In this document: positions 3,193 to 59,263 of the stretch, piece by piece | Numbering within the stretch: position 1 is the first letter of the stretch | How the letters are laid out: every line of letters begins with the position of its first letter | Notes under the pieces: generated by a model | The model's input: only the letters and a program-made list of their open reading frames with translations | Told to the model about the DNA's origin: nothing | Database searches by the model: none | From: an uncultured Bacteroidales bacterium | GTDB lineage: Bacteria > Bacteroidota > Bacteroidia > Bacteroidales > GWA2-32-17 | Assembly (NCBI GenBank): GCA_964431135.1 | Contig: CAYSIN010000001.1 | Span: forward strand, 5,096 to 69,095 | Direction: 5' to 3' | DNA: 64,000 nt | Translations under genes and position numbers: made by a program

Positions 3193-3236
3193 TTTAAAAG
3201 TTAAGTATTTTTTATTTATTCGTAATTTATTTGGTG

Positions 3237-3244
3237 CAAATATA
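3237..3244 (-). promoter_or_regulatory. Candidate -7 promoter box (TATATTTG)
   Basis: Reverse complement TATATTTG, 44 nt upstream of ATG 3192. Confidence 0.35.
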
Positions 3245-3284
3245 CTTGTTTATTTAATGGGACAAATGTTAACTTTTAATTTTA

Positions 3285-4409
3285 TTATTTCGTATGGTCT
3301 TTTATTTTGATAAATGATTTATTGATTTCGTTCATGCGGACATAGTTTTTAAAATGTTTGCGGGTCAATTTTTCTAATTTATCCAGTTCTTCTATACTTA
3401 ATTCATCTATAAAACAGGTAGGGTCTTCGTTAAAAACATCGCCGGTATGATAATAAGCCATAACACGGCAACCGCCGCATGTCCAGTTATATTTACAGTT
3501 GCCACATTTACCCTTTAACGAAGGTCGATTAATTATTTTTTTCATTAAATCTGATTCAAATAGAATTTCTTTTAACGGTGTTTGATATACATTGCCAGCC
3601 GAGATATTATCAGAAAGCAAAGGACAAGGTGCTACATCACCTGCGGGATTGATGCCATAGAAAGAACCCACCCAGCAACCAACCGAGGGTTGAATGGGCA
3701 CTTCTGTAGAAAAAGCCTTAATCCCTGTAATTTCTTCATAATCGTTGGGATTTAGAAAAAAGGGAACAAAACTTACAAAACCATGATACGATTTCATAAG
3801 TGCCGGATGAAGATATTCTTTCAAAATCTTTTTATCAAACATCATTTCTTTATGTGTTGAATGTCGTGGCGAAAAGGGAATTCGATTGTAGGGCAAACTT
3901 TGCTGTATTATTCTTTCAATAGTATTTGAAAATGTTTGACAATTAAAACTTCCCATGGTTACAGAGATATTGGTGTTGATGCTATTTTCCAGCAACAGGT
4001 TCAACTTTTCTTCAAAAAAAGATATTTCACGATAACGAGTATCTTCATTTTCATCGTCAAACGAATTAATGCCTAACGAAATGAGTAAGTTATGCCCCAG
4101 TATTTTTTTTAATTCGGTTATTGTTTTTTGGTTGATAAGTGAACCATTGGACGAGATGCCTATTTTAAATCCCAATTTGTTTGCCCTATCCAATAACTCA
4201 AAGGCATCATTTCTTAATAAAAATTCACCACCGGAAAAATCAATAAATTCAGTACCAAGATTTCTGGCAGGGATTAAAATGTAGTTGATTAAATCAAGGG
4301 TACTTTTATCTTCTTCCCACAATGCTGGATTGTTAGAACCACTCGAGCAATGCGGACATCTGAAATTACAACGTCGTGTTGTCTCAAAATATAAAGTATG
4401 GAAAAGCAT
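3285..4409 (-). CDS. Radical SAM enzyme with C-terminal SPASM domain (peptide/protein-modifying maturase type)
   Basis: 374 aa. N-terminal CNFRCPHC (CxxxCxxC) radical-SAM cluster motif. C-terminal Cys pattern C-x16-C ... CGNCKYNWTCGGC ... DPTC fits a full SPASM twin auxiliary 4Fe-4S domain. Confidence 0.9.
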   Translation of the reverse strand: MLFHTLYFETTRRCNFRCPHCSSGSNNPALWEEDKSTLDLINYILIPARNLGTEFIDFSGGEFLLRNDAFELLDRANKLGFKIGISSNGSLINQKTITELKKILGHNLLISLGINSFDDENEDTRYREISFFEEKLNLLLENSINTNISVTMGSFNCQTFSNTIERIIQQSLPYNRIPFSPRHSTHKEMMFDKKILKEYLHPALMKSYHGFVSFVPFFLNPNDYEEITGIKAFSTEVPIQPSVGCWVGSFYGINPAGDVAPCPLLSDNISAGNVYQTPLKEILFESDLMKKIINRPSLKGKCGNCKYNWTCGGCRVMAYYHTGDVFNEDPTCFIDELSIEELDKLEKLTRKHFKNYVRMNEINKSFIKIKDHTK

Positions 4410-9311: not shown

Positions 9312-9381
9312 TAATACCAAACCGCTAACCAAAGCACACTAACAAAATTCATTTCATTTTTTTGTTAGCGGTTTGGTATTA
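9312..9381. mobile_element. MITE-like element with perfect 18-bp terminal inverted repeats
   Basis: TAATACCAAACCGCTAAC (9312-9329) and its exact reverse complement GTTAGCGGTTTGGTATTA (9364-9381). The 66-bp core is flanked by TA on both sides. The interior is related to copies at 32251-32270 and 46809-46828. Confidence 0.55.
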
Positions 9382-9522
9382 TATGAAGAAGTGGCTGCAT
9401 GGTGAGATTGCTTCGCTACGCTCGCAATGACGAGATGGGGCGAATAGTTACAAATAAGTTTTTAAGGGATGACTAGTTATTTGTCCCCCAAATAATAAAG
9501 GTAAATAAATTCCATTTGGTAT

Positions 9523-12346: not shown

Positions 12347-15300
12347 ATGAAAAAATATTTATTTTCTATTGTACTGATATTCAGTATGTTAAATTTTTAT
12401 GGACAAGCATACCTTATCAGTTCAGGAGGAACTGTTTCTACCTGTTCGGGTTATTTTTACGATAGCGGTGGTAGCGGAGGTACATACCAGAACGATGAAA
12501 ACTATACCATGACGATATGCTCAAGTAATGGTGGGCACATTGTTGCTACATTTACTGCTTTCAATACAGAAGCAAGTTATGATTATTTATATATATATAA
12601 TGGACCGAATACAGGCAGTCCATTAATAGGTTCTTATAACGGCACTACATCACCTGGCACTATTACTTCCAGTGGAACCTGTCTTACTTTTGTGTTTACT
12701 TCTGATGTTAGTGTAATGTATGATGGATGGGCTGCAACATTATCTTGTACCACACCAGTTGCTCCAAATACACAGGATTGTGCAGGGGCAATACCATTAT
12801 GCTTTTCTACTTATTCCACTACTGCTTCTTATTCTGGTCAGGGAAATTTCCCAACTGAAATTCCAACACATTTACCATATTCAGACGACATGTGTCCCGG
12901 CAATTGTTTACTGGCAGGAGAACTTAACGATGTTTGGTACACATTTACCGTTCAAACTTCTGGAACACTTACATTTCAGATTACTCCCAATAGTAGCGGT
13001 GATGATTATGATTGGGCGGTATATAATTTAACCAATGCCGAATGTGCAGATATTTATTCGAACCCAAGTTTGCAGGTAAGTTGTAATTTTTGCGGTGTAC
13101 CAGGAGCGACAGGTCCTACCGGTGGAGGTTCTTCTTCGTGTATGTATGGCGACCCGGCTTATTGTACAACTTACAATTCTGCTATTAGTGTAACTGCTGG
13201 ACAAACATACGTGGTTAATGTAAGTAATTTCAGTTCAACACAAAATGGATATAGTATTACTTTTGGAGGTACGGCTCAAGTAGTGGACAATACAGGTCCA
13301 TATTTGTACAATGTTGTTCAATCGCCGGCATGTGGACAAAATCAGGTTATCATTCGTTTCAGTGAAAATGTGTCATGCACTACGGTGCAGGCATCCGATT
13401 TTACTATCAGCGGTCCAGGTGGACCCTATACCGTTACATCTGTGAGTGGTGCTATTTGTGCTGCTGGGGGCAGTTACGAAAGAGATTATGTATTAACAGT
13501 AAGCCCTGCTTTTGTACAAGGAGGAACCTATACTATTAGTTTAGTAAGTAATTCTGTTTCTGATATATGTTCACATCCAACCGGTGGGCAAAATTTGACC
13601 TTCAGCGTTACCGGTGTAACTGCTTCGGCTTCGGTAGTAAGTAATGTTTCATGTTATGGTGGAAATAATGGCTCTGCAACGGCAAGCGGTTCAGGCGGCA
13701 CTTCTCCATATTCTTACTCATGGAGCAATGGTTCTACGTTGGCAAATCCAACCGGTTTGGCTGCAGGAACTTATACCGTTACGGTAAGAGATGCCAATGG
13801 CGTTTGTAATGCAACGGCACAAATCACAATAACACAACCTACAATACTTGCCGCTACCATTAGTTCTTCACCTGTTTTATGTAATGGTGGAAGTACCGGT
13901 TCTGCAAGCGTAAGTCCTTCTGGCGGAACGTCTCCTTATTCATATTTATGGAGTAACAGTTCCACCGCATCTTCTATTTCCGGTTTATCACAAGGAACTT
14001 ATTCTGTTACAATAACTGATAATAAGGGTTGCACTTTGGTAAAAAGTACCACAGTATCTCAACCAACAGCGTTATCTGTTTCAACATCTCAGACAAATGT
14101 GAGTTGCAATGGAGGGAATAACGGCAGTGCAACTGTTTCGGTAAGTGGAGGCACTCCCTTATATTCATACACATGGAGTAACGGTCAATCAACAGCAACA
14201 GCATCAGGTTTAACGTCGGGCACATACACCGTTACAATTCGTGATGCCAATAGTTGTTCAACAACGCGTACTTTCACTATTACACAGCCCGCTACTTTGA
14301 CTTCTTCCATTGCCTCGCAAACAAATGTTTCCTGTTTTGGTGGCTCAACAGGCTCTGCAACAGTAACACAAAGCGGTGGCACTTCTCCTTATAATTATAC
14401 ATGGTCCAATAGTCAAACCACACAAACTGCTACAGGATTAACAGCCGGTACTTATACTGTTACTGTTAGAGATGCCAATAATTGTACTTCTATTTCGTTG
14501 GTAACAATCTCGCAACCAACTGCGGTGAGTGTTGGCATTTCGGGTTCAAATGTAACCTGTAACGGTAGCAGTACAGGAAGCGCTACTGCAAATCCTACTG
14601 GTGGAACGCCAACCTATACCTATTTATGGTCCAACAGTCAAACATCGCAAACCATTTCGGGACTTGCTGCCGGTACTTATACGGTTACAGTCCATGATAT
14701 CAATAATTGTTCGGCTGTAAACAGCATAACCATAACACAACCATCAACATTAACTTCTTCCATTTCATCACAAACAAATGTAAGTTGTAACGGTGGCAAT
14801 AATGGAACGGCAACCGTAACAGGAAGTGGTGGTACACCTTCTTATACTTACACCTGGTCTAATAGTCAAACATCACAAACAGCCACAGGATTGTCTTCGG
14901 GAACTTACTATGTTACTGTAAAGGACACTCATAATTGTACTTCGGTATCGTCTGTTACCATTACGCAACCCGCAGCACTGTCCGTAAGCATGACAAAGAC
15001 TAATGTTGCTTGTAATGGTGGAAGTACAGGCAGTGCAACAGCAACACCAACAGGCGGAACACCGGGCTATTCTTATCAATGGACTGGTGGACAAACAACA
15101 CAAACTATTTCAGGATTGTCAGCAGGAACTTATTATGTTACGGTGAGAGATGCCAACAATTGTTCACAAGTAAATTCTATTTCCATAACACAGCCAACTG
15201 CTGTAAGTGCCAGCATTTCATCTTCCACTAATGTAAGTTGTAATGGCGGTAATAATGGAACGGCAACAGTAAATGCAACAGGTGGTACACCGTCCTATAC

Positions 15301-18300
15301 TTATAATTGGTCAAACAGTCAAACTACGGCTACTGCTACTAGTCTGGCAGCAGGAACATATAATGTAACCGTATATGATGCGAACAATTGCACTTCTACT
15401 ACTTCAGTAAGTATTACCCAACCGGCTGTTTTAAATGCAACGTTATCTTCTACTAATACCAGTTGCTATGGTGGTTCAAATGGAAGTGCCACAGCAACAC
15501 CCACAGGAGGTACCGGCCCTTATACTTATTTATGGGTTCCTGGCGGACAAACAGGTTCAACAGCAACGAATTTAAGTGCAGGTACCTATAATGTAACTAT
15601 TACTGATATTAAAGGATGTACAAAAACAGGCTCTGTAACGGTATCACAACCAGCATCTCTGACACTTACTATGAGCAAAACAGATGCTACTTGTGGTAAC
15701 AGTAACGGAAGTGCTTCTGTTTCGGTAAGTGGAGGGACACCTTCTTATTCATATTTATGGTCTAACAGTGCTACTACAATTTCTATAACCAATGTACCTG
15801 CTGGTACTTATTCAGTAACCGTAACTGACAGTCATAGTTGTACCAATGTAAATAACGTGGCAGTAAATAATTCCGGTGCTCCGGTTGTAACCGTAAATTC
15901 AGTTACAAATGTTACTTGTAACGGTGGCTCAACTGGTGGAGCCAGTATTTCTGCCAGTGGTGGAACACCATCTTATTCGTATCACTGGTCTAATGGTGCA
16001 ACAACAACATCCATATCTAATGTAGCAGCAGGAACTTATTCTATTACTGTAACCGATGCATTGACATGTATAGGTACGGCTTCAGTAACTATTACTCAAC
16101 CGTCAGCAGTAGTAGCAACTATTACAAGTAATATCAGTCCATTGTGCAATGGTGCTTCCAATGGAAGTGCTACGGTAAGCGCTTCCGGTGGAACACCCGG
16201 ATATAATTATCAATGGTCTAATGGACAAACAACTGTAACTGCTATAAATTTGGCAGCGGGCACATACAGTGTTACAGTTAAGGATACCCATAATTGTACA
16301 ACAACAACTTCCGTAACTGTCACTCAACCAACTGTTGTTACCTCATCCATCACTTCATCATCCAATGTTAGTTGCAATGGAGGTGCTAATGGTAGTGCAA
16401 CTGCTTCTGGAAGTGGTGGTACACCTGGTTATACCTATGGATGGTCCAGCGGCGCTAGTTCGGCTACAGCATCGGGATTAAGTGCAGGCACTTATTATGT
16501 TACTGTAAAAGATGTCAACAATTGTTCTTCAATATCTTCTGTAACTATATCGCAACCTGCGGCACTAACTTCCACTTTCAACACAACCAACGTAAATTGC
16601 AATGGTGGTTCGAATGGCTCATTAACTGTTAATCCAACAGGTGGGACATCACCTTATACCTATTCGTGGTCAAACAGTCAAACAACACAAACCATTAACG
16701 GACTGATAGCAGGTACATATTCTGTTACCATTACTGATAGTCATAGTTGTACCATGGTCAACAGTGCAACTGTTACTCAACCCACCACGTTAACTTCTTC
16801 CATTACTGCTCAAACCAACGTATCATGTAATGGCGGAAACAATGGAAGTGCTACGGTAACAGCCACGGGAGGAACAACAAATTATTCCTATCTATGGTCT
16901 AACAGTGCAACTACAAGTTCTATAACGAATGTTACTGCTGGTACTTATTCTGTGACGGTAACCGATGCGCACTTGTGCACCAATACTTCTTCGGTTACTA
17001 TTACACAGCCATCAGTAATTACTGCAACAACGTCTGGAACAAGTGTTCTTTGCAACGGTGGAAATACAGGAACGGCTTCTGTTGCTGCCAGTGGAGGAAC
17101 ACCGGGATATACCTATCTTTGGTCAACTACTGCAACCACTTCATCCATTAGTGGATTAGCGGCAGGTACTTATTCCGTCACCATTCGCGATGCTAACAAT
17201 TGTTCCAAAATTGCAACCTATACCGTAACTCAACCTGCTGTATTAACTGCTACCATATCATCATCAACACAAGTTTCATGTTATGGAGGAAACAATGGTG
17301 CAGCAACAGTTAGTGTATCAGGTGGAACTACAGCATATTCATATTTATGGTCATCGGGACAAACAACGGCTATGGTTAATGGATTGGTTGCCGGAACCTA
17401 TACCGTAACAGTTAGAGATGCCAACAATTGTTCTACAACGGCTAATGTTACCATCAATCAACCAACTCAACTTATATCTACCATGGGAATTCCTACTAAT
17501 GTTTCGTGTAATGGTGGAAATAACGGAACTGTTACTGTTACAGCATCAGGAGGAAGCCCAACGTATTCGTACCTTTGGTCGAATGGGCAAACTGCAGCAA
17601 CAGCCTCCAATTTAACTGCAAATTCGTATTCAGTCACCATAACCGATTCTCATAGTTGCACTTCAACGGCAAGTGTTACCATAACGCAACCGGCTGTTTT
17701 AACTTCCAGTATTTCTGCTTCAAACCAAGTAACATGCTTTGGAACAGCAACAGGTTCTGCAACTGTAACACAAAGCGGTGGCACATCACCTTATTCTTAC
17801 TTATGGTCAAATAGTCAAACGACTCAAACAGCGACGGGCTTAACAGCGGGAAATTATACAGTAACCATTACTGATAATAAAGGCTGTACAACCACAAGTT
17901 CTGTTACAATAACACAACCGTCGGCACTCTCTGCCAGCATTAATTCTTCCACAAATGTATTGTGTAATGGTGGGAACAATGGTTCTGCATCGGTTAGTGT
18001 TACAGGAGGAACACCTGCGTATGTTTACAGTTGGACTACAGGGCAATCAAGTTCATCTATTACGGGGCTTACTGCCGGGAACTATACGGTAACAGTTACA
18101 GATAATAACAGTTGTACAAGTATTGCCAATGTAACCATTACTCAACCTACTGTTATTTCAATAACTATGAATTCTGTTAATGTATCCTGCCATGGTGGAA
18201 ACAATGGTTCTGCAACAGCATCGGTTTCTGGTGGTACACCTGCATATACATATATCTGGTTGCCTGGTGGAGCGGTTACATCATCTATTAACGGACTTTC

Positions 18301-21300
18301 TGCAGGGACTTATACTGTAACGGTAACTGATGATAATGGCTGTACAAAGGCTTCCGTTGTAAATATTACTGAACCTACTGCCATGACGGTTAATCCAACC
18401 GTTGCGGATGCTACTTGTGGCAATTCAAATGGAACAGCAAGCGTTACAGTTAGCGGCGGAGTTAATCCTTATTCTTATCACTGGTCAACGGGCGCAACTA
18501 CCGCATCTATTTCAGGTATTCCCGCAGGAAATTATGGCATTACTGTGAGCGATGCCAATAGTTGCAGTACCATATCTACTGTTTCCATTAATAATACAGG
18601 TGCACCTACCATTACGGTAGATAATGTAACACCTGTTGTTTGCTTTGGTGGCAGTAGTGGTTCCATATCCATTTCTGTTACAGGCGGAAGTCCAAGTTAT
18701 ACTTACAGTTGGTCTAATGGCGCAGATAGCACTTATTTGACTGGACTTACAGCAAACAATTACTCCGTCACAGTAACCGACAGTATAGGATGTCAGGCAA
18801 CGCAAAATATTACGATAACTCAACCAACGGCCATCAATGCTTCTATTATATCCGTACTGCCTCCATCATGCTATGGTTATTCTAATGGTTCTGCTTCGGC
18901 AGTAGCATCAGGTGGAACACCTTCTTATTTTTATTCGTGGTCAAATGGTGCCAATACGGCTAATGTTAATAATTTATCAGCAGGAAACTACACCGTAACT
19001 GTTACCGATTCACATGGTTGTACGACAACCGCTTCTACCAGTGTTTCTCAACCAGCAGGTATGTCTGCCATGTTGGTTTCTCAAACGAATGTTTCCTGTC
19101 ATGGAGGTAACGATGGTGCTGCTACCATTTCCGTTTCGGGTGGTACATCACCTTATACCTATTCATGGAATAATGGTTCTACATCAGCGTCTATTAGCAA
19201 TTTGATAGCAGGCAGTTATACGGTTACCATTACGGATAATAATATGTGTACGATTTCTTCCGGTGCTTCTATTATTGAACCACAAGCCATCAACATTAAT
19301 GTACCTATTTTAAATAATGTTACCTGTAATGGTTTAAGTAATGGTGCGGCATCTGTTAATGTTACAGGTGGAACCTTGCCTTATGGATATCAGTGGTCAA
19401 ACGGTTCAACTATAAATAGTATTACCAATGTGCCTGCTGGTACTTATGATTTAACTGTAACCGATGGACATTTATGTACATCAACTACCCAAATTACCAT
19501 AACAGAACCATCATCTATAATGTCCACTGTTACGCAAACAGCATCGATTAGTTGCTTTGGCGGTAATAATGGTGCAGCAACGGTCAGTGCATCAGGTGGA
19601 ATAAACCCTTATGGTTACCACTGGTCAACCAATCAAAGTACGCCAACCATTTCCAATTTAAGTGCAGGAACCTATTTCATTACGGTTAACGATTTGAACG
19701 GTTGTACCAAAGTGGACAGTATTGTTATCGTTCAGCCCACTGAAATCGTATTATCCTTTGCCGATGATTCGGTACTTTGTTATGGTGCAGTCAATGGAAA
19801 TATTGATTTGACTGTTAACGGTGGTACACCTTCTTATACATATCTTTGGAGCAATAATCAATTAAGTGAAGATATAACAGGTTTGGCGGCAGGCACTTAT
19901 ACTGTTACGGTTCACGATGCTAATCATTGTCCTATGATATCTTCTACAACTATTTATGAACCTCCAGTTTTGACCAATACCTTCAACATGATAAATTCAC
20001 ATTGCAATCTGTCAGATGGAAGTTTGCAAACCAGCGTTTCAGGCGGTGTTGGTCCTTATACTTATTTATGGGATGCACAAGCCAATGGACAAACAACATC
20101 TACTGCCATTAATTTAAGTGCTGGCACTTATTCTGTTTCGGTACACGATAGTCATGGCTGCCTGTCTGTATTTACAGGCAGTGTGTCGGATATTAATGCA
20201 CCACAACTTTCATTTAATATTGTGCAATTACCTAATTGTAATGGCGATTCTACCGGTAAAGTTTATTCAACGGTGCAAGGTGGTACTAATCCTGTTTCAC
20301 TATTATGGTCAAATGGAGTTACCGCTGATTCTATTGTGAATGTACCTGCTGGTATTTATTATTTAACGGCAACCGATGGTGCAGGTTGTATTACAATTGA
20401 TTCTGTTACAGTTACGCAACCCAATGTGTTGGCATTTAATATTGATGATGTTGTTTCACCAAGTTGTTTTGGACTTACCAATGGTTCTATTCATCTGCAT
20501 GCTGAAGGAGGTACTTTACCATATACTTATACATGGCAGGATGACCAGGGAACATCTCTTGGCAACAATTCATCCATAACAAATGTTGGCGTTGGCAATT
20601 ATTTTGTTACTGTAGTCGATTCGCATGGTTGTAGCACAATGTTAAATCTTAGTTTATCGCAGCCATCCTTATTAGTTGCAGATACGATAAGTCATATCTC
20701 TCCACTGTGTGCCAACAGCAATGATGGAATGGCTAATGTACAGGTTTCTGGTGGTACTACTCCTTATACTTATATTTGGAATGATGCTTTGCATACGCAA
20801 AATGATACATTAAGTAATGTAGATGGGAATCATTTCTATTATGTAACTGTAACTGATGCCAATGGCTGTACCATTATTGATTCAGTCTATATTACTGCAC
20901 CTGCTCCAGTCAATGCTATTGCTTCAGGATTTTCAGCCAATTGTAATTCACAAAATGGCTGGGCATACGTTCAGGCAAGTGGTGGAACATTACCTTATAC
21001 CTATTTATGGTCCACAGGTGCAAATACTGATACGGTACAAGGTTTATCCAGCGGAAATTATCATGTAACTGTTTACGACAGTCATGCATGCTCTGCAATT
21101 CAAACGGTTCAAATTACCAATCTGCCGGCTGGCAATATTGTAGTTGATTCTATTCAGGATGTTTCATGTTATGGTGAATCATCAGGCAATATTAGTATAA
21201 GCGTGAATGGTGGCACAGCACCTTATTCATATTTATGGAGTAATGGGAGTACTTCATCCTCTTTATCAGGTGTGGTTGCCGGACAATACTCTGTAACCGT

Positions 21301-22303
21301 TACCGATGTTAACCATTGTACAGACGATACTGTTTTGCAAATCACACAACCTCCGATATTGCTTGTGGATGCTGCTGTTCAAAATATTACATGTAATGGA
21401 TTGCAAAATGGCAGTATTGTATTGACCGTAAATGGCGGTGTAAGTCCTTTCAGTTATATATGGAATACAGGTTTTTTAACACCTTCCATTAACAATTTGA
21501 CAGCAGGAACTTATACGGTTACGATTACCGATTCTCATCATTGCACGGTCATTTATCAGCATAACATTACAGAACCTGCACCGTTGCAGGTAAATACTTC
21601 AGGTACAAATCCGTTGTGCTATAATGGCAACGATGGTGCTATACATGCTACTCTCATAGGCGGAACACCACCGTATTCGTATGCATGGTCAACGGGAGAG
21701 ACGACTCAAGACATTCAAGGATTGACGGCAGGTTCTTATCAGGTTACCATAACCGACAGCAATCTCTGTGTTGTTACAGCCGTAGCGATTATTGCCAATC
21801 CTCTACCCATGCAAACCACGGCAACACAAAGTCAAGACCCTGTCAACAATTTAGGGAATGTGCAATTAACTACTATTGGTGGCACCCTGCCTTATTCCTA
21901 TTCATGGTCTAATGGTGCACAATCAAGCAACGTTAGCGATTTGGTTGCCGGTACTTACTATGTAACCATTTCGGATGCCAATAACTGCATGATGATTGAC
22001 ACCTTTATTGTTGACATACAACTCGTTATTCCATCAGTTATAACACCTAATGAAGATGGGAAAAATGATGCATTTGAAATATTAGGTATTGGCGGATATA
22101 ACCAAGTTGATATTGAAATATACAATCGCTGGGGCGATTTATTGTTTAGTTATTCCGGTTCTGGTATGGACTATACCGATGTTACGAAACAATGGGATGG
22201 CAAATTCAACGGAAAAAAATTACCCATGGGACCTTACTTGTATGTTATTAAAATAAGTGATATTAAAGACCCTATTACAGGTACCATTACCATAAAATAT
22301 TAA
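12347..22303 (+). CDS. Giant SprB-repeat cell-surface adhesin-like protein with T9SS type-B (gliding-motility-associated) C-terminal domain
   Basis: 3318 aa with a signal peptide. CUB-like N-terminal domain (YFYDSGGSGGTYQNDENY...YLYIYNG...DGWAATLSC). 37 consecutive ~76-aa SprB repeats (C.GG.NGSA....GGT.PY.Y.WSNG.T......L.AGTY.VTV.D...C). C-terminus IPSVITPNEDGKNDAFEI...IYNRWGDLLF...WDGKFNGKKLPMGPYLYVIK matches the type-B sorting domain pattern. Confidence 0.92.
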   Translation: MKKYLFSIVLIFSMLNFYGQAYLISSGGTVSTCSGYFYDSGGSGGTYQNDENYTMTICSSNGGHIVATFTAFNTEASYDYLYIYNGPNTGSPLIGSYNGTTSPGTITSSGTCLTFVFTSDVSVMYDGWAATLSCTTPVAPNTQDCAGAIPLCFSTYSTTASYSGQGNFPTEIPTHLPYSDDMCPGNCLLAGELNDVWYTFTVQTSGTLTFQITPNSSGDDYDWAVYNLTNAECADIYSNPSLQVSCNFCGVPGATGPTGGGSSSCMYGDPAYCTTYNSAISVTAGQTYVVNVSNFSSTQNGYSITFGGTAQVVDNTGPYLYNVVQSPACGQNQVIIRFSENVSCTTVQASDFTISGPGGPYTVTSVSGAICAAGGSYERDYVLTVSPAFVQGGTYTISLVSNSVSDICSHPTGGQNLTFSVTGVTASASVVSNVSCYGGNNGSATASGSGGTSPYSYSWSNGSTLANPTGLAAGTYTVTVRDANGVCNATAQITITQPTILAATISSSPVLCNGGSTGSASVSPSGGTSPYSYLWSNSSTASSISGLSQGTYSVTITDNKGCTLVKSTTVSQPTALSVSTSQTNVSCNGGNNGSATVSVSGGTPLYSYTWSNGQSTATASGLTSGTYTVTIRDANSCSTTRTFTITQPATLTSSIASQTNVSCFGGSTGSATVTQSGGTSPYNYTWSNSQTTQTATGLTAGTYTVTVRDANNCTSISLVTISQPTAVSVGISGSNVTCNGSSTGSATANPTGGTPTYTYLWSNSQTSQTISGLAAGTYTVTVHDINNCSAVNSITITQPSTLTSSISSQTNVSCNGGNNGTATVTGSGGTPSYTYTWSNSQTSQTATGLSSGTYYVTVKDTHNCTSVSSVTITQPAALSVSMTKTNVACNGGSTGSATATPTGGTPGYSYQWTGGQTTQTISGLSAGTYYVTVRDANNCSQVNSISITQPTAVSASISSSTNVSCNGGNNGTATVNATGGTPSYTYNWSNSQTTATATSLAAGTYNVTVYDANNCTSTTSVSITQPAVLNATLSSTNTSCYGGSNGSATATPTGGTGPYTYLWVPGGQTGSTATNLSAGTYNVTITDIKGCTKTGSVTVSQPASLTLTMSKTDATCGNSNGSASVSVSGGTPSYSYLWSNSATTISITNVPAGTYSVTVTDSHSCTNVNNVAVNNSGAPVVTVNSVTNVTCNGGSTGGASISASGGTPSYSYHWSNGATTTSISNVAAGTYSITVTDALTCIGTASVTITQPSAVVATITSNISPLCNGASNGSATVSASGGTPGYNYQWSNGQTTVTAINLAAGTYSVTVKDTHNCTTTTSVTVTQPTVVTSSITSSSNVSCNGGANGSATASGSGGTPGYTYGWSSGASSATASGLSAGTYYVTVKDVNNCSSISSVTISQPAALTSTFNTTNVNCNGGSNGSLTVNPTGGTSPYTYSWSNSQTTQTINGLIAGTYSVTITDSHSCTMVNSATVTQPTTLTSSITAQTNVSCNGGNNGSATVTATGGTTNYSYLWSNSATTSSITNVTAGTYSVTVTDAHLCTNTSSVTITQPSVITATTSGTSVLCNGGNTGTASVAASGGTPGYTYLWSTTATTSSISGLAAGTYSVTIRDANNCSKIATYTVTQPAVLTATISSSTQVSCYGGNNGAATVSVSGGTTAYSYLWSSGQTTAMVNGLVAGTYTVTVRDANNCSTTANVTINQPTQLISTMGIPTNVSCNGGNNGTVTVTASGGSPTYSYLWSNGQTAATASNLTANSYSVTITDSHSCTSTASVTITQPAVLTSSISASNQVTCFGTATGSATVTQSGGTSPYSYLWSNSQTTQTATGLTAGNYTVTITDNKGCTTTSSVTITQPSALSASINSSTNVLCNGGNNGSASVSVTGGTPAYVYSWTTGQSSSSITGLTAGNYTVTVTDNNSCTSIANVTITQPTVISITMNSVNVSCHGGNNGSATASVSGGTPAYTYIWLPGGAVTSSINGLSAGTYTVTVTDDNGCTKASVVNITEPTAMTVNPTVADATCGNSNGTASVTVSGGVNPYSYHWSTGATTASISGIPAGNYGITVSDANSCSTISTVSINNTGAPTITVDNVTPVVCFGGSSGSISISVTGGSPSYTYSWSNGADSTYLTGLTANNYSVTVTDSIGCQATQNITITQPTAINASIISVLPPSCYGYSNGSASAVASGGTPSYFYSWSNGANTANVNNLSAGNYTVTVTDSHGCTTTASTSVSQPAGMSAMLVSQTNVSCHGGNDGAATISVSGGTSPYTYSWNNGSTSASISNLIAGSYTVTITDNNMCTISSGASIIEPQAININVPILNNVTCNGLSNGAASVNVTGGTLPYGYQWSNGSTINSITNVPAGTYDLTVTDGHLCTSTTQITITEPSSIMSTVTQTASISCFGGNNGAATVSASGGINPYGYHWSTNQSTPTISNLSAGTYFITVNDLNGCTKVDSIVIVQPTEIVLSFADDSVLCYGAVNGNIDLTVNGGTPSYTYLWSNNQLSEDITGLAAGTYTVTVHDANHCPMISSTTIYEPPVLTNTFNMINSHCNLSDGSLQTSVSGGVGPYTYLWDAQANGQTTSTAINLSAGTYSVSVHDSHGCLSVFTGSVSDINAPQLSFNIVQLPNCNGDSTGKVYSTVQGGTNPVSLLWSNGVTADSIVNVPAGIYYLTATDGAGCITIDSVTVTQPNVLAFNIDDVVSPSCFGLTNGSIHLHAEGGTLPYTYTWQDDQGTSLGNNSSITNVGVGNYFVTVVDSHGCSTMLNLSLSQPSLLVADTISHISPLCANSNDGMANVQVSGGTTPYTYIWNDALHTQNDTLSNVDGNHFYYVTVTDANGCTIIDSVYITAPAPVNAIASGFSANCNSQNGWAYVQASGGTLPYTYLWSTGANTDTVQGLSSGNYHVTVYDSHACSAIQTVQITNLPAGNIVVDSIQDVSCYGESSGNISISVNGGTAPYSYLWSNGSTSSSLSGVVAGQYSVTVTDVNHCTDDTVLQITQPPILLVDAAVQNITCNGLQNGSIVLTVNGGVSPFSYIWNTGFLTPSINNLTAGTYTVTITDSHHCTVIYQHNITEPAPLQVNTSGTNPLCYNGNDGAIHATLIGGTPPYSYAWSTGETTQDIQGLTAGSYQVTITDSNLCVVTAVAIIANPLPMQTTATQSQDPVNNLGNVQLTTIGGTLPYSYSWSNGAQSSNVSDLVAGTYYVTISDANNCMMIDTFIVDIQLVIPSVITPNEDGKNDAFEILGIGGYNQVDIEIYNRWGDLLFSYSGSGMDYTDVTKQWDGKFNGKKLPMGPYLYVIKISDIKDPITGTITIKY
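13620..22020 (+). repeat. Tandem array of 37 SprB-repeat coding units (~225-230 bp each)
   Basis: Counted from the protein by the recurrent PY.Y.W ... AGTY.VTV.D..C signature. Units are diverged at synonymous sites, so this is not a recent amplification. Confidence 0.9.
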
Positions 22304-29940: not shown

Positions 29941-30132
29941 CATCTCGTTAAAAAAACTCATTGAGGAATTTGATGAGATTTTCTTTGCGTTTTGCGTTTG
30001 CGAACTTAGCGGTTATATAAAAACATTATCTTTAAGTACTTTTTTTACATTATTTTTTTACTTTTACAACAAATTTTGAAAGTGAAAAAATATTTTCTTT
30101 TTATAGGTTTTATCTTGTTAGCAAGTCGGTAT
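29941..30132. repeat. Intergenic repeat island (degenerate modules)
   Basis: Degenerate hairpin module CATCTCGTTAAAAAAACTCATTGAGGAATTTGATGAGAT (29941-29979). TCTTTGCGT-rich module (29981-30016, related to 58484-58524). Solo terminus GTTAGCAAGTCGGTAT (30117-30132). Confidence 0.4.
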
Positions 30133-32234: not shown

Positions 32235-32487
32235 ATACCAGACCGCTAACAAAAGAATGAAATGAATTTTGTCCCGTCAAAAACTCTTGTTAGAGTTTGA
32301 CGGGATGCCGACAGACTAACCGTTTAACCCCGACTTAGATAAAGTTATATTTTTAGAGCAAAGAGAATAAAAATATTACCTTATCTTTGTCGCCTATGTA
32401 ATTCATGAAACTAAGTTTTATGAATTATTCGGGTTTAAAACAAAAGCGAAGCGAATTGTTTTAATGAACTGGTTAGCAATTCGGTAT
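32235..32487. repeat. Composite intergenic repeat island between convergent genes
   Basis: Terminus + interior ATACCAGACCGCTAACAAAAGAATGAAATGAATTTT (32235-32270). Hairpin module + GCCGACAGACTAACCGTTT (32271-32325). 110-bp insert (32326-32435). AAAACAAAAGCGAAGCGAATTGTTTTAATGAACTGGTTAGCAATTCGGTAT (32436-32487). Confidence 0.65.
32326..32435. mobile_element. 110-bp insertion with inverted ends nested in the composite repeat
   Basis: Absent from the otherwise collinear copy at 37322-37426. Ends AACCCCGA... / ...TTCGGGTT. Internal hairpin 32400-32426. TATCTTTG box 32382-32389. Confidence 0.45.
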
Positions 32488-37321: not shown

Positions 37322-37528
37322 ATCTCGTCAAACACAAAAAAGAGTTTGACGAGATGCCGACAGATTAACCGTTTTAAAACAAAAGCGAAGCGAATGGTTT
37401 TAATGAACTTGATAGCAAGTTGGTATTATCAAATTATATTAGGTATAAACCGAATTGAAATGCTTTACCAATTAAACATTTTTGAATGCATATCGGTATA
37501 AATTATTTTTTTGTTAGCGGTTTGGTAT
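37322..37528. repeat. Composite intergenic repeat island
   Basis: 12-bp perfect hairpin ATCTCGTCAAAC/GTTTGACGAGAT + GCCGACAGATTAACCGTTTT (37322-37375), fused to AAAACAAAAGCGAAGCGAATGGTTTTAATGAACTTGATAGCAAGTTGGTAT (37376-37426, followed by TA). Solo terminus GTTAGCGGTTTGGTAT (37513-37528). Confidence 0.65.
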
Positions 37529-40920: not shown

Positions 40921-40956
40921 AAAAAAAAGAGGCGAGCAAAAATTGAGCGCTCGGCG
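40921..40956 (-). terminator. Candidate intrinsic terminator for the ECF operon (minus strand)
   Basis: Minus-strand read: GCCGAGC (40949-40955), 11-nt loop, GCTCGCC (40931-40937; 7-bp stem with 1 mismatch), then TCTTTTTTTT (40921-40930). Confidence 0.45.
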
Positions 40957-41129
40957 AAGTTTTGCGTGTAGGCAAGTGTAGTAGCTAACTCGTCGGACTT
41001 AAAAGTTAGTTTTCAAACTAAGCAAAAAATAGCGTATAGTTGTGCAAACCAAAAATGATGACAACAGGTTATGCCATTTTTTTGAAATAATAAATTACGA
41101 CGAAGTCTGCCTGTACTCATCACGTGTGG

Positions 41130-45769: not shown

Positions 45770-46519
45770 ATGAAACGAATTTATATAATAATAATTGTAT
45801 TGATTGTTGTAGGATTGATTTCAGTTATCGGTGTAAATTTTTATAATAAAATTATTGGCGATAACAAAATTTCTACAGTAGATTCGTCACCAAAACCTAC
45901 TTTATTATCACTAAGTCTTCGTACAGATATTCCTATTACTTATACCAATACTTTTAATGGGAAATTTGAACTTATAGAAAGAACACTTTATGATACCTCG
46001 CAATATATCATCTATATTCATAACGATAAAGCAAGAATTGATAAAAATTATAGAACTACCAAAAAGGAATCCTATTTATTGAATTTGAAAACAGGAGAAA
46101 TGATAGCACTGAATCATCAAAAAAAATTGTATTCTTCTATTCCCGTAGTTGAAGAAAAACCTTCGCTCGATTCAACATTTACTGTTATAAAAACTAATAT
46201 TAATAAAAATATCTTAGGGCAAAACTGTGCTCAATGGCGTGTTAAAAATCGTAATGATAATACAGAAATTACGTATTGGGTTTCAACCAACAACTATGGA
46301 TTTTATTATTATTTAAACAAAGTATGGGATGCCAGTAAAAAATATCATAAATATTTTCAGATTATTCCCCAGTCGTTTGGATTTATGCCATTTGAAATTG
46401 TAGAACGAAATTTATTAAGAGATATTAAATCTTCAGTAAATATGACATCCATCTCCAATCAAATGTTAGATACATCTCTTTTTACTGTTCCATCGGATTA
46501 TAAACACTTTTCCAATTAA
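45770..46519 (+). CDS. Membrane-anchored protein of unknown function (paralog of 54506-55186; possibly DUF4412-like)
   Basis: 249 aa. N-terminal TM (IYIIIIVLIVVGLISVIGV). Shares NCAQWRVKNRNDNTEITYWV / ...LFTVPSDYKHFSN with PCYQWRVRNKSQNTEISYWV / ...LFILPKDYKSYSD of the other gene. Confidence 0.6.
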   Translation: MKRIYIIIIVLIVVGLISVIGVNFYNKIIGDNKISTVDSSPKPTLLSLSLRTDIPITYTNTFNGKFELIERTLYDTSQYIIYIHNDKARIDKNYRTTKKESYLLNLKTGEMIALNHQKKLYSSIPVVEEKPSLDSTFTVIKTNINKNILGQNCAQWRVKNRNDNTEITYWVSTNNYGFYYYLNKVWDASKKYHKYFQIIPQSFGFMPFEIVERNLLRDIKSSVNMTSISNQMLDTSLFTVPSDYKHFSN

Positions 46520-46581: not shown

Positions 46582-46956
46582 ATTCGGTTTTGTTTTAATG
46601 AACTTGTTAGCAAGTCGGTATAATTACTATTTTGTAATGAGTAAAGTGAACTGCGTGAGGAACATCCCCCTTAATTCCCCCTTCAACGGGGGAGGTGTTG
46701 AGCAATAGTCCATTCCCCAAATTCCTCCCCCTTTGAAGGGGGTTTGGGGGATGTCCTATCCCATTGCACACTTCCCTATTCTTCCACACATAATACCAAA
46801 CCGCTAACAAAAGAATGAAATGAATTTCGTTGGTTTGGTTTATGCCGAATGCGAAGCACTTCGGCATCGGATTGGGTTAATGTTAATTATCACATTTACA
46901 CAACTTGTCTCGGCATCCCGTCAGAATGACGGGATGACAAGATTTTTACATTTTCT
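46582..46956. repeat. Intergenic repeat island with four different modules
   Basis: Partial MITE-like copy ending GTTAGCAAGTCGGTAT (46582-46621). 98-bp GC-rich nested palindrome (46659-46756). TA-flanked copy ATACCAAACCGCTAAC...GGTTTGGTTTA (46793-46841). 8-bp hairpin ATGCCGAA/TTCGGCAT (46842-46867). 58-bp GC hairpin module (46899-46956). Confidence 0.7.
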
Positions 46957-47015: not shown

Positions 47016-47441
47016 CTATTCTGCCTTGTTGGGCAACATATTTATAACATCGTCCAGTTTATCATCAAAACGTAAATCCTGAATTTGCCAATGGTCGCCA
47101 TGATTGTATAAATTAAATACAATTTTTATCGGCTGGCGGTCAAACAACATCAAGTATCCTAGTTGTGCAAACGAATTACCTACTTGCTTTTTTAAGTACA
47201 AATCGTAACTGTAAAATTTCCCAATAATCGGCAATGCCTTGTTAAATTTATCTTTTAACGTATTAACCACTTCTGGGTTTTGTTTTAAATACTTGTTAGT
47301 AGAAAAAACATACTGCAAACTTCGTTCAACACCATTTTTTTTAAAATGATAAAAAAATGAATCGGCAACGGCTTCGGGTGTTTGCTGCCCATACAGATTA
47401 ACTGTCATTAAAAACAGCATTGGAAAAATAATACTTTTCAT
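47016..47441 (-). CDS. Small secreted protein, unknown function
   Basis: Start at MKSIIFPMLFLMTVNLYGQ (signal peptide); 141 aa. Confidence 0.55.
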   Translation of the reverse strand: MKSIIFPMLFLMTVNLYGQQTPEAVADSFFYHFKKNGVERSLQYVFSTNKYLKQNPEVVNTLKDKFNKALPIIGKFYSYDLYLKKQVGNSFAQLGYLMLFDRQPIKIVFNLYNHGDHWQIQDLRFDDKLDDVINMLPNKAE

Positions 47442-47458
47442 AATTATAATCAATAAAA

Positions 47459-56679: not shown

Positions 56680-58095
56680 ATGAATAAAATAAACGCAAAA
56701 ATAATACCTTTTATTTCGTTTTCGTTATTGTTTTTTTTCTTTTCGTGCAAAAAGGAAAATTTTTATACGGGCAGCGAACCCATACTCAATTTTTCTACCG
56801 ATACGGTTCAGTTTGATACGGTATTTACTACCATAGGCAGTGCTACCCAATCATTTATAGTTTATAATTCATTAAACAAACCTGTAAAAATAAATTCCAT
56901 ACGGCTTGCCAAAGGGACAAATTCCTTTTTCCGTTTAAACATTAATGGTATTAGTACCCGCGAACTTAAAGACGAAGAATTGGCTGCCAACGACAGTTTG
57001 TTTATTTTTGTGGAAGTAAAAGTGGACCCTACCAATTCCAACAATCCAATGGTAGTCCAAGATTCCATAGAATTTCATATAAATCAAAGCATGCAAAATG
57101 TAAAGTTAGTGGCGTATGGACAAGATGTACATTTAATTAACGCCGAAGTCATCCATCAAAATACTACATGGATTGCCGATAAACCTTATCTGGTATATAA
57201 TTCCATGCTTGTTGACAGTAATGTTACGCTCCAAATTTCTTCTGGGGTAACCGTTTATTTTCATCATCAGTCGCGAATGTATATTATGGGAACGATGCTC
57301 GCCAATGGCTCTCACGATGAACCTATTCTTTTTAGAGGCGACCGGCTTGAACATTGGTATGACGATGTCCCAGGTCAATGGGATGGCATTTATTTCGTTA
57401 TGGGAAGCAAAGACAATACGATGAATTATTGCGAAGTTAAAAACGCCATTATTGGAATTCAAGTGGACACGCTCGCATCGCTGGCACAACCCACACTTAC
57501 CATTTCAAACAGTAAAATTTTAAATATGAATGCTGTTGGCATATTTGCACAGGGCAGTACCATTAAAGCATGGAACTGTATTGTAGCACAGTGTGGACAA
57601 TTTGCATTGGCACTGGCCATTGGCGGCTCTTACGAATTTTATCATTGTACTATATACAATACATGGGCGTATAATAATAGACAAACACCTTCTATTTGGC
57701 TCAACAATTATTACAAAGATATAAATGGCAATTATCAAATAAGACCGCTGGACAAAGCTACCTTTGCCAATTGCATTATTTATGGAAACAAGGACAACGA
57801 AATATTGCTTGATAATTATTCTACTACCAGTCCGTTTCAGTATATTTTTCAACATTGCTTACTCAAAATTTCCAATGATATTCCAACAACCGATGCCCAG
57901 CATTGGATGAATATATACAAGAATAATGACCCACTATTAGTTAATCCATACTACGATAAATTCCAACTCGATTCCACTTCATTTTGTATTAATAAGGGCG
58001 ATTTAAATATAGGTGCACAATTTCCATGGGATTTTGATGGTTACAGCAGGTTATCAGATAATCAACCTGACTTGGGGGCTTATGAATGGCATTAA
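56680..58095 (+). CDS. Lipoprotein with probable parallel beta-helix region, unknown function
   Basis: Start revised to MNKINAKIIPFISFSLLFFFFSC (lipobox). Internal repeats such as NVTLQISSGVTVYF, NAIIGIQVD, ISNSKILNM suggest a beta-helix. Confidence 0.55.
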   Translation: MNKINAKIIPFISFSLLFFFFSCKKENFYTGSEPILNFSTDTVQFDTVFTTIGSATQSFIVYNSLNKPVKINSIRLAKGTNSFFRLNINGISTRELKDEELAANDSLFIFVEVKVDPTNSNNPMVVQDSIEFHINQSMQNVKLVAYGQDVHLINAEVIHQNTTWIADKPYLVYNSMLVDSNVTLQISSGVTVYFHHQSRMYIMGTMLANGSHDEPILFRGDRLEHWYDDVPGQWDGIYFVMGSKDNTMNYCEVKNAIIGIQVDTLASLAQPTLTISNSKILNMNAVGIFAQGSTIKAWNCIVAQCGQFALALAIGGSYEFYHCTIYNTWAYNNRQTPSIWLNNYYKDINGNYQIRPLDKATFANCIIYGNKDNEILLDNYSTTSPFQYIFQHCLLKISNDIPTTDAQHWMNIYKNNDPLLVNPYYDKFQLDSTSFCINKGDLNIGAQFPWDFDGYSRLSDNQPDLGAYEWH

Positions 58096-58136: not shown

Positions 58137-58618
58137 CATCAAACTCTGATAAGAGTTTTGAAAGGGCTATACAAGAAAATATAGAGGTTTTAAGGATAAT
58201 GAAGCAATGGAACATGGTTAATAGATACGTCATTTATACTAACCCGCTAACAAAAGCGAAGCGAATTGTTTTAATGAACTGGTTAGCAAGTCGATATTAT
58301 ATAGCAAAATTAAAATATCAAATTTAAAATATCAAATTTAAAATTTAAAAAAATAGCACACAGATTACACAGATGTAATGGATTAAAACTGATAAATAAA
58401 TATTTACAAACCTACTTCATCATTCTCACAACTTGTCTCGGCATCCCGTCAGAATGACGGGATGACAAGATTTTCACATTTTCTTTTGCGATCTTTGCGT
58501 AATATCTTTGCGTTCTTGGCGGTTTATCAGAATTCAAATTTCAGAATTAAAATTTAATACCAAACCGCTAACAAAAGCGAAGCGAATTGTTTTAATGAAC
58601 TGGTTAGCAAGTCGGTAT
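58137..58618. repeat. Largest intergenic repeat island (619-bp spacer)
   Basis: Degenerate hairpin module (58137-58165). 62-bp MITE-like copy A (58236-58297). AT-rich 14-bp tandem AAATATCAAATTTA x2 (58312-58340). CACAGATTACACAGAT (58358-58373). 58-bp GC hairpin module (58427-58484). TCTTTGCGT-rich module (58484-58524). 62-bp MITE-like copy B (58557-58618). Confidence 0.7.
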
Positions 58619-58714: not shown

Positions 58715-59263
58715 ATGAAAAAGAGAGTGAACATATTAGGCAAGACCTTTGAACTATCCATATCGGAACAAAAAATTGCCAATGCTGTAAAAACAATGGC
58801 AAACCAACTCAATCATGATTTTTCTAATTCCGATAAGGAAATATTGTTTTTAGGTATTTTAAACGGCTCATTTATGTTTGCTGCCGATTTATTTAGACAA
58901 ATCACCTTCCCCTGTAAAATCACTTTCTTAAAATTAGCTTCCTATCAAGGAACACATTCCACAGGGGTTGTCAGAAGTCTTATAGGAATTAATGAAAACC
59001 TGAAAAATAAAATAGTCATTGTATTAGAAGATATTGTGGATACGGGTGAAACATTAGAAAATATCACCTGTCAACTTAAAGGCTACGAACCGTTCGAAAT
59101 AAAACTGGCAACTTTTCTTTTTAAGCCCGATGCATATAAAAAAAACATCACCCTTGATTATGTAGGAATGAAAATTCCCAATGATTTTATTGTTGGTTAT
59201 GGGTTAGATTACGATGGCTATGGACGCAATTTACCTGAAATATATTCATTAGTTAACAAATAA
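58715..59263 (+). CDS. hpt: Hypoxanthine phosphoribosyltransferase
   Basis: 182 aa. PRPP-binding loop VIVLEDIVDTGETL; C-terminal DFIVGYGLDYDGYGRNL. Confidence 0.92.
   Translation: MKKRVNILGKTFELSISEQKIANAVKTMANQLNHDFSNSDKEILFLGILNGSFMFAADLFRQITFPCKITFLKLASYQGTHSTGVVRSLIGINENLKNKIVIVLEDIVDTGETLENITCQLKGYEPFEIKLATFLFKPDAYKKNITLDYVGMKIPNDFIVGYGLDYDGYGRNLPEIYSLVNK

Follow-up and report, generated by a model that had tools for sequence, protein, structure and literature searches.

Intergenic hairpin repeats of a Bacteroidales lineage: a mosaic system, probably mobilised in trans

Described repeat systems and the repeats of the window

Repetitive extragenic palindromes (REPs), mobilised by REP-associated tyrosine transposases (RAYTs or TnpA-REP, Y1 HUH enzymes like those of IS200/IS605) and arranged as REPINs (REP doublets forming hairpins) or bacterial interspersed mosaic elements (BIMEs), are short palindromes rich in GC that lie between genes and in many cases occur as inverted dimers folding into one larger hairpin. 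They form mosaics with other motifs, reach high copy numbers, break assemblies, leave no target-site duplication and carry a sequence-conserved part beside the structural stem. In this study, we describe repeats with the same traits in a 64,000-nucleotide stretch of DNA (the window; ~35% G+C) from an uncultured Bacteroidales bacterium of the GWA2-32-17 lineage (assembly GCA_964431135.1, contig CAYSIN010000001.1, forward-strand positions 5,096 to 69,095). They comprise a 58-bp two-stem hairpin, module D, and a longer repeat with a related hairpin, family C, to which hairpins at 32 and 37 kb of the window belong. With moderate confidence, we regard module D as one brick of a lineage-specific mosaic system of intergenic repeats, probably mobilised in trans in the way of REPs and BIMEs or of MITEs (miniature inverted-repeat transposable elements).

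Additional copies were collected by a metagenome scan with the pattern CGTCAN{1,25}TGACGRGATGCCGASASA, which yielded 48 loci, ~40 of them from metagenome Ga0302253 (~35% G+C); loci of this and other scans carry L numbers below. Copy counts cover 0.43 Mb of Ga0302253 sequence, read around copies, and the window. At least 8 copies of module D (two in the window, one each in L072, L074, L105 and L110, and two in L097) and at least 38 family C elements were present at unrelated loci. As in REPs, where a palindrome of about 20-40 nt recurs in many intergenic copies, the hairpins measure 23-43 nt, and module D is an inverted dimer. They differ from REPs in their foot, which is TCG/GCCGA instead of the unpaired 5′ GT[AG]G; there is no unpaired GTAG/GTGG head, and the conserved CGTC lies in the stem beside the loop. 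Further differences are the 16-nt terminal inverted repeats and the fixed unit of ~129 bp in family C. A RAYT gene with the repeats on its flanks was not found in the sequence covered, the window and the 0.43 Mb of loci.

Di Nocera et al. (PMC3733652) described CGTC-tagged REPs, among them Neisseria dRS3 and Rickettsia RPE-4/-6, which are reported from Bacteroidetes and several other phyla, are mostly head-to-head dimers and have no known dedicated transposase. Their CGTC forms an unpaired head, after which come a stem of 8-9 bp that begins with AT, a loop of 4-5 nt and a short tail of the CCA type (PMC3733652). Our repeats share the CGTC signature, the dimeric arrangement and the lack of a known transposase, but modules D and C pair the CGTC beside the loop, in the stem CATCYCGTCA. 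The motif CATCYCGTCA / TGACGRGATG-CCGA is common to module D and the central hairpin of family C and also heads CGTC-type palindromes (CATCTCGTC-ATTGCGAG...). Its heptamer TCYCGTC occurs 209 times in the 0.43 Mb, nearly always within repeat modules, and 15 of these occurrences belong to CATCYCGTC-ATTGCGAG...GAAGCAAT units resembling the CGTC-tagged REPs (PMC3733652); the genomes studied here carry CATCTCGTC-ATTGCGAG...GAAGCAAT units like that class. In the window, a module at 9380-9440, which is 92-97% identical to Ga0302253 loci, contains CCATCTCGTC-ATTGCGAG...GAAGCAAT and resembles a CGTC-tagged REP. This separate module, with its 15 Ga0302253 copies, fits the described form better than modules D and C do.

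Modular MITE-like repeats, such as BOX of Streptococcus pneumoniae, Correia elements of Neisseria and enterobacterial ERIC, are likewise intergenic, 60-250 bp long and bounded by terminal inverted repeats, with interchangeable modules, long-hairpin folding and either orientation to genes. Correia elements show a TA duplication and have known effects on promoters and RNase III processing. The sequences of these repeats and the TA duplication and promoter/RNase III features of Correia were not found here. Family C has the terminal repeats and the defined length of a MITE, whereas a target-site duplication is absent and only the flanking base is enriched. An integron attC site, considered because of a GCTAAC/GTTAGC resemblance, was rejected since the sites lie between housekeeping genes and not in cassette arrays, and their cores misfit RYYYAAC/GTTRRRY.

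Architecture of module D and family C

Module D copy 1 (46899..46956, + strand) has an outer stem in which 46904-46909 pairs with 46936-46941 (CTTGTC/GACAAG) and an inner stem of 10 bp, CATCCCGTCA at 46914-46923 with TGACGGGATG at 46927-46936, closed by the loop GAA. In copy 2 (58427..58484, + strand), the inner stem joins 58442-58451 with 58455-58464. Both sequences read as the original prediction had given them, identical at 57 of 58 positions with T at 46947 versus C at 58475 as the sole difference. The two stems proposed there were also recovered; they had been given with an inner stem of 9 bp, the loop AGAAT and the outer stem CTTGT/ACAAG. RNA folding gave -19.6 kcal/mol for the + strand (z -4.1) and -22.2 kcal/mol for the - strand (z -4.6), and DNA folding gave -13.5 kcal/mol (z -5.8). 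Two occurrences of the 25-nt core GGCATCCCGTCAGAATGACGGGATG were counted in the window, and none in any of 100 shuffles. A 44-nt core is identical in all eight copies of module D save one stem site; it is built of two CTTGTC[TCGGC]ATCCCGTCA units placed head to head as an inverted dimer, one arm being 5 nt shorter.

The repeat continues beyond the 58 bp (64 nt at 95% within the window). Module D, which has no terminal repeats of its own and recurs in several contexts, is embedded in composites with a 70-nt leader upstream and a variable number of ACATTTTC and TTTGCG repeats downstream. In the composite holding copy 2 (58249..58496, + strand), a short C unit's right half comes first, then a minisatellite rich in A/T and the 70-nt leader (CTGATAAATAAATATTTACAAAC...), followed by the hairpin of module D and the ACATTTTC/TTTGCG repeats. 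A 256-bp stretch of L072 matches this composite at 93% identity, and the flanking genes at the two places are unrelated. Directly upstream of copy 1, 46791..46876 (+ strand) comprises the left end of a C unit (46793-46808) and AAAAGAATGAAATGAATTTCG, the CGTC hairpin being swapped for TTGGTTTGGTTT plus a ATGCCGAA/TTCGGCAT hairpin (46842-46867).

Family C is bounded by imperfect 16-nt inverted repeats, ATACCAAACCGCTAAC...GTTAGCAAGTCGGTAT, and has the layout ATACCAAACCGCTAAC-AAAAGAATGAAATGAATTTTG-[TCTCGTCA GCAA TGACGAGA]-TGCCGACAGACTAAC-MGTTTTAAAACAAAAGCGAAGCGAATTGTTTTAATGAACTT-GTTAGCAAGTCGGTAT. Its modal length is 129 bp (17 copies), and its flanks are AT-rich (T-W-ATACC...GGTAT-W-A). Directly after the hairpin stands ATGCCGACAGACTAAC, a third copy of the end motif, which pairs with the right end. 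Variants of 62-64 bp have no hairpin, those of 127 bp carry a different insert in its place, those of 133-145 bp have long hairpins, and in those of 161 bp one hairpin is nested within the loop of another (L100, L108). The 13-mer GACGGGATGCCGA, searched with up to 2 mismatches, gave 7 matches in the window versus 0.37 expected, the exact or one-mismatch matches lying at 32299 and 37348 on the + strand and at 46910 and 58438 on the - strand. Since the family C end motif has its third copy next to the hairpin, this 13-mer is a hairpin arm overlapping an end motif. The arm had been described as common to module D and the 32- and 37-kb hairpins; it is, with the module D arm on the opposite strand from family C.

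The 32-kb hairpin belongs to a 253-bp variant of family C (32235..32487, + strand) between convergent dxs and an ORF (open reading frame), which is built of the left end ATACCAGACCGCTAAC, a long hairpin (32271-32307), ATGCCGACAGACTAAC, an extra insert of ~110 bp and the right end GTTAGCAATTCGGTAT. A left-truncated copy in a divergent intergenic region (37322..37426, + strand) contains a perfect 12-bp hairpin (37322-37333 with 37344-37355), GCCGACAGATTAAC, and the right half with the right end at 37411-37426; this stem, followed by GCCGACAGATTAACCGTTT, had been read correctly before. The 58-bp unit is thus part of longer composites, and the two hairpins are internal to 32235-32487 and 37322-37426.

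Over 66 kb of the window genome, units or fragments related to family C were counted at nine sites. A short 62-bp unit at 58236..58297 (+ strand) consists of left end, AAAAGCGAAGCGAATTGTTTTAATGAAC and right end without a central hairpin, and a second one at 58557..58618 (+ strand) is 95% identical to 58236-58299. At 9314..9379, directly before the module that resembles a CGTC-tagged REP, two left ends form a palindromic unit with perfect 16-bp arms (ATACCAAACCGCTAAC / GTTAGCGGTTTGGTAT). Isolated parts are the right half plus right end at 46590..46621 (+ strand), a right-end fragment at 30117..30132 (- strand) and a reversed left end at 37513..37528 (- strand; GTTAGCGGTTTGGTAT). Two degenerate relatives named in the original prediction are plausible: one at 29941..29979 (+ strand; CATCTCGTTAAA...TTTGATGAGAT) keeps its stem via two G.T pairs and is followed by a TTTGCG...GCGGTTA module as found 3′ of module D, and the other at 58137..58165 (+ strand; ATCAAACTCT-GATA-AGAGTTTTGA) matches the distal part of a long hairpin.

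Several further repeats accompany these units. The 8-nt repeat ACATTYTC stands 3′ of module D (window 58468-58525; L074, L105, L072, L097) in 1 to ~7 units per copy, followed by TTTGCG motifs ~10 nt apart (TTTTGCGWTCTTTGCGTAATATCTTTGCG); the TTTGCG module is also found behind the degenerate hairpin, at 29980-30015. A Bacteroidetes-type promoter (-7 TAnnTTTG / -33 TTTG) in the TTTGCG module was considered and dismissed by eye, TATCTTTG being there with no TTTG at the expected spacing. The minisatellite at 58300-58346 (AAAATATCAAATTT and variants), which separates the short C unit from the leader of module D, is kept in L072 and L074. A 205-nt module at 46590-46793 contains two G5/C5 hairpins (CCCCCTTCAACGGGGG, CCCCCTTTGAAGGGGG) and matches L084, L095, L099 and L115 at 86-90% identity, and in those loci it also lies behind the right end of a C unit; the overlapping 86-aa ORF at 46607-46867 is probably spurious.

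Pairing, gene context and mobilisation

Across ~50 copies, the core stem varies at a single Y/R pair and is otherwise invariant, in line with the earlier statement that the stem stays paired in an AT-rich genome. Compensatory covariation, also claimed, was not confirmed. The Y/R site occurs in all four states (C-G, T-A, T.G and C.A), and no other core stem position varies. The exchange of TCTCG..CGAGA for TCCCG..CGGGA between the 37-kb and 32-kb copies is real, but two copies are too few to establish covariation, and the site is not strictly compensatory. In module D it is C-G in 4 copies, T.G in 3 and C.A in 1. Family C copies with a short loop mostly have T-A, plus 3 with C.A and 1 with T.G, and those with a long loop have C-G, with the T-A of the 37-kb copy in the window as the exception. 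This amounts to 2-3 independent compensated switches versus 5-6 uncompensated states, and no choice of strand makes all of the latter wobble pairs. Uncompensated states are about as frequent as independent compensatory events, an outcome that the original prediction had itself named as speaking against it. Outer stem positions take several Watson-Crick pair types across the hairpin subfamilies, in a set that was filtered for pairing and leans to structure. In our reading, the hairpin structure is maintained and its core is sequence-constrained; a core stem invariant except for one site fits sequence-specific recognition by a protein better than generic RNA pairing.

No copy of family C lies within an ORF. 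One copy of module D (L074) is located 17 nt within an uncertain ORF start, and the others are intergenic where classifiable. Family C contexts could be classified for 26 copies, 11 of which are between divergent and 8 between convergent genes, with 3 tandem in the same and 4 tandem in the opposite orientation; 15 copies at contig ends were unclassifiable. Module D is found in convergent (2-3 of 8), divergent (1-2 of 8) and tandem contexts. Copy 1 has convergent flanks (a DUF4412 gene ending at 46519 and a - strand ORF ending at 47016), and copy 2 sits between a beta-helix gene (end at 58095) and hpt (start at 58715). For the 145-aa ORF at 47016-47453, no record was found. The copies show no orientation or gene-context bias, and the genes beside them are unrelated housekeeping genes.

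These contexts bear on a role as a 3′-end element at the RNA level that is kept paired for its function, be it as intrinsic terminator, as insulator or as a stem-loop that stabilises mRNA. The hairpin is stable on both strands, the complete module D stem is followed by ATTTTTACATTTTC on the + strand, and part of the copies of both repeats are located between convergent genes. REPs of other bacteria are known to stabilise mRNA and to end transcription (background in PMC3733652 and PMC6006769). As in intrinsic terminators, a GC-rich stem-loop has a T-rich sequence downstream on one strand; in contrast to them, the T run comes only after the outer stem with its internal loop, and terminator/promoter consensus scans called neither module D copy. 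Moreover, the copies between divergent genes stand in promoter regions where no terminator is needed, tandem sites hold both orientations, and element variants without a hairpin exist. The stem is sequence-invariant and does not covary freely, with C.A and T.G at the variable site without a consistent strand. We consider this explanation unlikely. Effects on transcripts, as a 3′-end hairpin or mRNA stabiliser, would be secondary and site-dependent and not the reason for the family.

A small RNA (sRNA) gene, or another structured non-coding RNA expressed from the repeats, would be in keeping with the strong folds and with the 93% conservation of the composite around module D over ~250 nt between two organisms. 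Searches against Rfam gave 0 matches in the whole window at the gathering threshold, chance-level matches only for the module D region at E values up to 10, and nothing meaningful for ten related loci. There is no consistent promoter-like site, and a gene family would not be expected to show so many mosaic and truncated variants or a dispersal irrespective of orientation. We give this alternative very little credence; of the roles that had been proposed, terminator and sRNA are weak readings. No tRNA or tmRNA was found in the window. A hammerhead or other self-cleaving ribozyme, prompted by CUGACGAG and GAAAC, was rejected by inspection, since CUGACGAG is fully paired and the helices therefore cannot form a three-way junction.

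Repeats of the window match the Ga0302253 loci at 90-97% identity over 100-256 bp and are all that the two have in common at the DNA level; coding DNA gave no alignment, and the single protein match has 61% identity. In another sample (Logan), contigs of the same strain have 3 of 3 observed ends inside C units; one contig starts within 58557-58618, and another ends at 46616 within 46590-46621. A further right end of a C unit, ATACCGACTTGCTAACCAGTTCATTAAAAC, was located just past the window in L144 (7040-7087; ~65.65 kb on the window scale), and a Logan contig ends inside it. Contig ends in C units concern L144, together with L001 and L143.

The near-identical copies at unrelated intergenic sites, the modular and nested variants, the truncations and the absence of orientation bias together point to repeated palindromic DNA that looks selfish and is probably trans-mobilised, and not to a regulatory RNA, and the far better conservation of repeats than of genes between organisms adds to this. 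Most probably, the elements are non-autonomous and copied to new intergenic sites, now or recently, by an enzyme acting in trans, for which the sequence-invariant hairpin would be the recognition structure at the DNA level. A single-strand DNA mechanism (HUH/Y1 type, as for REP/REPIN with RAYT) may be preferred over DDE cut-and-paste because no target-site duplication is seen, the conserved part is the hairpin, and hairpins are nested in hairpin loops. A recognition hairpin of the HUH type was among the options of the original prediction; it is viable and the one we favour, and an enzyme gene linked to the repeats was not found.

Cut-and-paste mobilisation of family C, and of composites with module D, as DDE-type MITEs, in which the transposase of an insertion sequence would recognise the 16-nt terminal repeats and the hairpin would be a passenger, draws on the terminal inverted repeats ATACCAAACCGCTAAC and GTTAGCAAGTCGGTAT, the uniform length of 129 bp and the AT-rich flanks. 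In addition, the single flanking base is the same on both sides in 23 of 38 elements versus 15.7 expected, and 1 of 200 shuffles reaches 23. Searches for a target-site duplication of at least 2 bp were negative, and neither an autonomous partner nor a transposase was detected in the 0.43 Mb around copies. Module D recurs in several contexts without terminal repeats, and what recurs across families and phyla is the hairpin with its flank and not the terminal repeats. We judge such a mechanism improbable.

Chromosomal sites for a nucleoid-associated or regulatory host protein, held by selection and not by transposition, would be a further explanation. REP/BIME sites bind gyrase or IHF, the invariant palindromic core TCYCGTCA/TGACGRGA would suit a dimeric DNA-binding protein, and the repeats are conserved between organisms. 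Such sites would explain neither the nesting of hairpins nor the truncated fragments nor the 129-bp units of uniform length with their terminal repeats, and no candidate protein is known. This is very improbable in our view.

Several points weigh against the reading that we favour. No empty site (presence/absence polymorphism) was obtained, and we thus infer mobility, as we do the type of enzyme, while repetition, structure, mosaic variants, dispersal between genes and the lack of orientation bias are shown; the closest relative of the DUF4412 gene flanking copy 1 is 65% identical, synteny ends after this gene, and there are no modules there. No transposase is linked to the repeats. Probing the window with IS200 TnpA and E. 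coli RAYT sequences did not reveal a Y1 transposase, and none was seen among ten ORFs beside family C copies (all housekeeping) or next to copies in the 0.43 Mb. The one RAYT-like gene (L113 8194-8829; weak PF01797 match, NHIH and YIINNP motifs) is not flanked by these hairpins. In a type I restriction-modification operon, it is located between an hsdM-like and an hsdS-like gene, and it has several in-frame GTAG palindromes of its own (GTAGGGA..TCCCTAC); both these palindromes and the two motifs are as described for TnpA-Y1 subclass 2.4 (PMC6006769). No pair of terminal repeats 0.5-3 kb apart, and so no autonomous copy, was seen in the copy flanks that were read. The 16-nt terminal repeats, uniform length and AT-rich sites of family C, as well as the single flanking base, are also typical of, or consistent with, DDE-mobilised MITEs, and the high identity between organisms could reflect functional constraint.

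Matches outside cellular chromosomes were also sought. Viral contigs gave 25 pattern matches, all of them chance or coding, and PLSDB plasmids gave no blastn match to the 129-bp consensus. Elsewhere in the window, the 3318-aa ORF at 12347-22303 is composed of repeats of 225-228 nt (~75 aa), which number in the dozens and have diverged while Cys, Gly and Trp positions are conserved; its product is probably a giant SprB-repeat-type adhesin of the cell surface. Another intergenic repeat module, ~180 nt long (40938-41119), has no relation to the hairpin and matches L092, L074 and L087 at 92-94% identity.

The hairpin core in other phyla and its meaning

A first scan of species-representative genomes gave ~50 loci from metagenome-assembled genomes (MAGs) of Acidobacteriota and also matched loci of Rhodanobacteraceae, Prevotellaceae, Flavobacteriales, Verrucomicrobiota, Binatia and Dormibacterota. 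An alignment of 56 Acidobacteriota copies defined an element of ~190 nt, in which three nested inverted repeats surround a centre that is almost invariant, loop included (AAACGCG-CATCTCGTCAG-TGCTTGATTTC-CTGACGAGATG-CCGACTT...ACTAATCC). It is present in several copies per MAG (L002-L067, e.g. L024 5500-5770; L077, L086, L093, L096, L112, L114), and similar copies were found in Rhodanobacteraceae (L003, L011), Binatia, Dormibacterota and Verrucomicrobiota. The loci searched at the gathering threshold had no Rfam match, and one Acidobacteriota copy searched at E values up to 5 had none either. A Prevotellaceae MAG carries a nested palindrome of ~170 nt (L053 1975-2165; L009 ~3230-3420) with a perfect 36-nt palindrome, GGCATCCCGTCAGGGATGCATCCCTGACGGGATGCC, at its centre; the neighbouring ORFs (malic enzyme, FGE-sulfatase) are not transposases. 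In a Flavobacteriales MAG (L004 4440-4724), tRNA-Lys and tRNA-Leu are followed by tandem 132-bp units like the 5′ two-thirds of tRNA-Leu, with the anticodon arm swapped for TCCCGTCACTTGTGACGGGA and then TGCCGAAAGATGTG; ARAGORN does not call these units.

Beyond the part forced by the search pattern, family C and the Acidobacteriota element both have ATGCCGAC and, a few bases on, ACTAAYC. By a rough estimate, the 14-nt arm would be matched by chance in a hairpin-repeat family with a probability of at most ~0.2%, and the additional 7-mer with one of ~2-3%. As sharing by chance is estimated to be this low, relatedness or a common recognising enzyme across phyla is plausible from the sequences. 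More tentatively, and with considerable doubt, (TCG)GCATCYCGTCA-loop-TGACGRGATGC(CGAC) followed a few bases on by ACTAAYC may be the core of an unrecognised superfamily of dispersed nested-palindrome elements that would extend from Bacteroidota to Acidobacteriota, Rhodanobacteraceae, Verrucomicrobiota and others.

Small palindromic intergenic repeats are ordinary in bacteria, and the repeats described here add a new family to a kind of element already known. Within one Bacteroidales lineage, the repeats account for assembly breaks and for odd intergenic conservation. The family offers a well-defined example of the CGTC type that looks recently active, since its 129-bp copies are numerous and nearly identical, insertions are nested, and the core is invariant. 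If the superfamily is true, it would mean that a small mobile element has spread between phyla, or that one widespread family of recognising enzymes (or an RNA function) is involved. CGTC-type palindromes have no known mobilising enzyme, and genes flanked by the motif could reveal the missing one.

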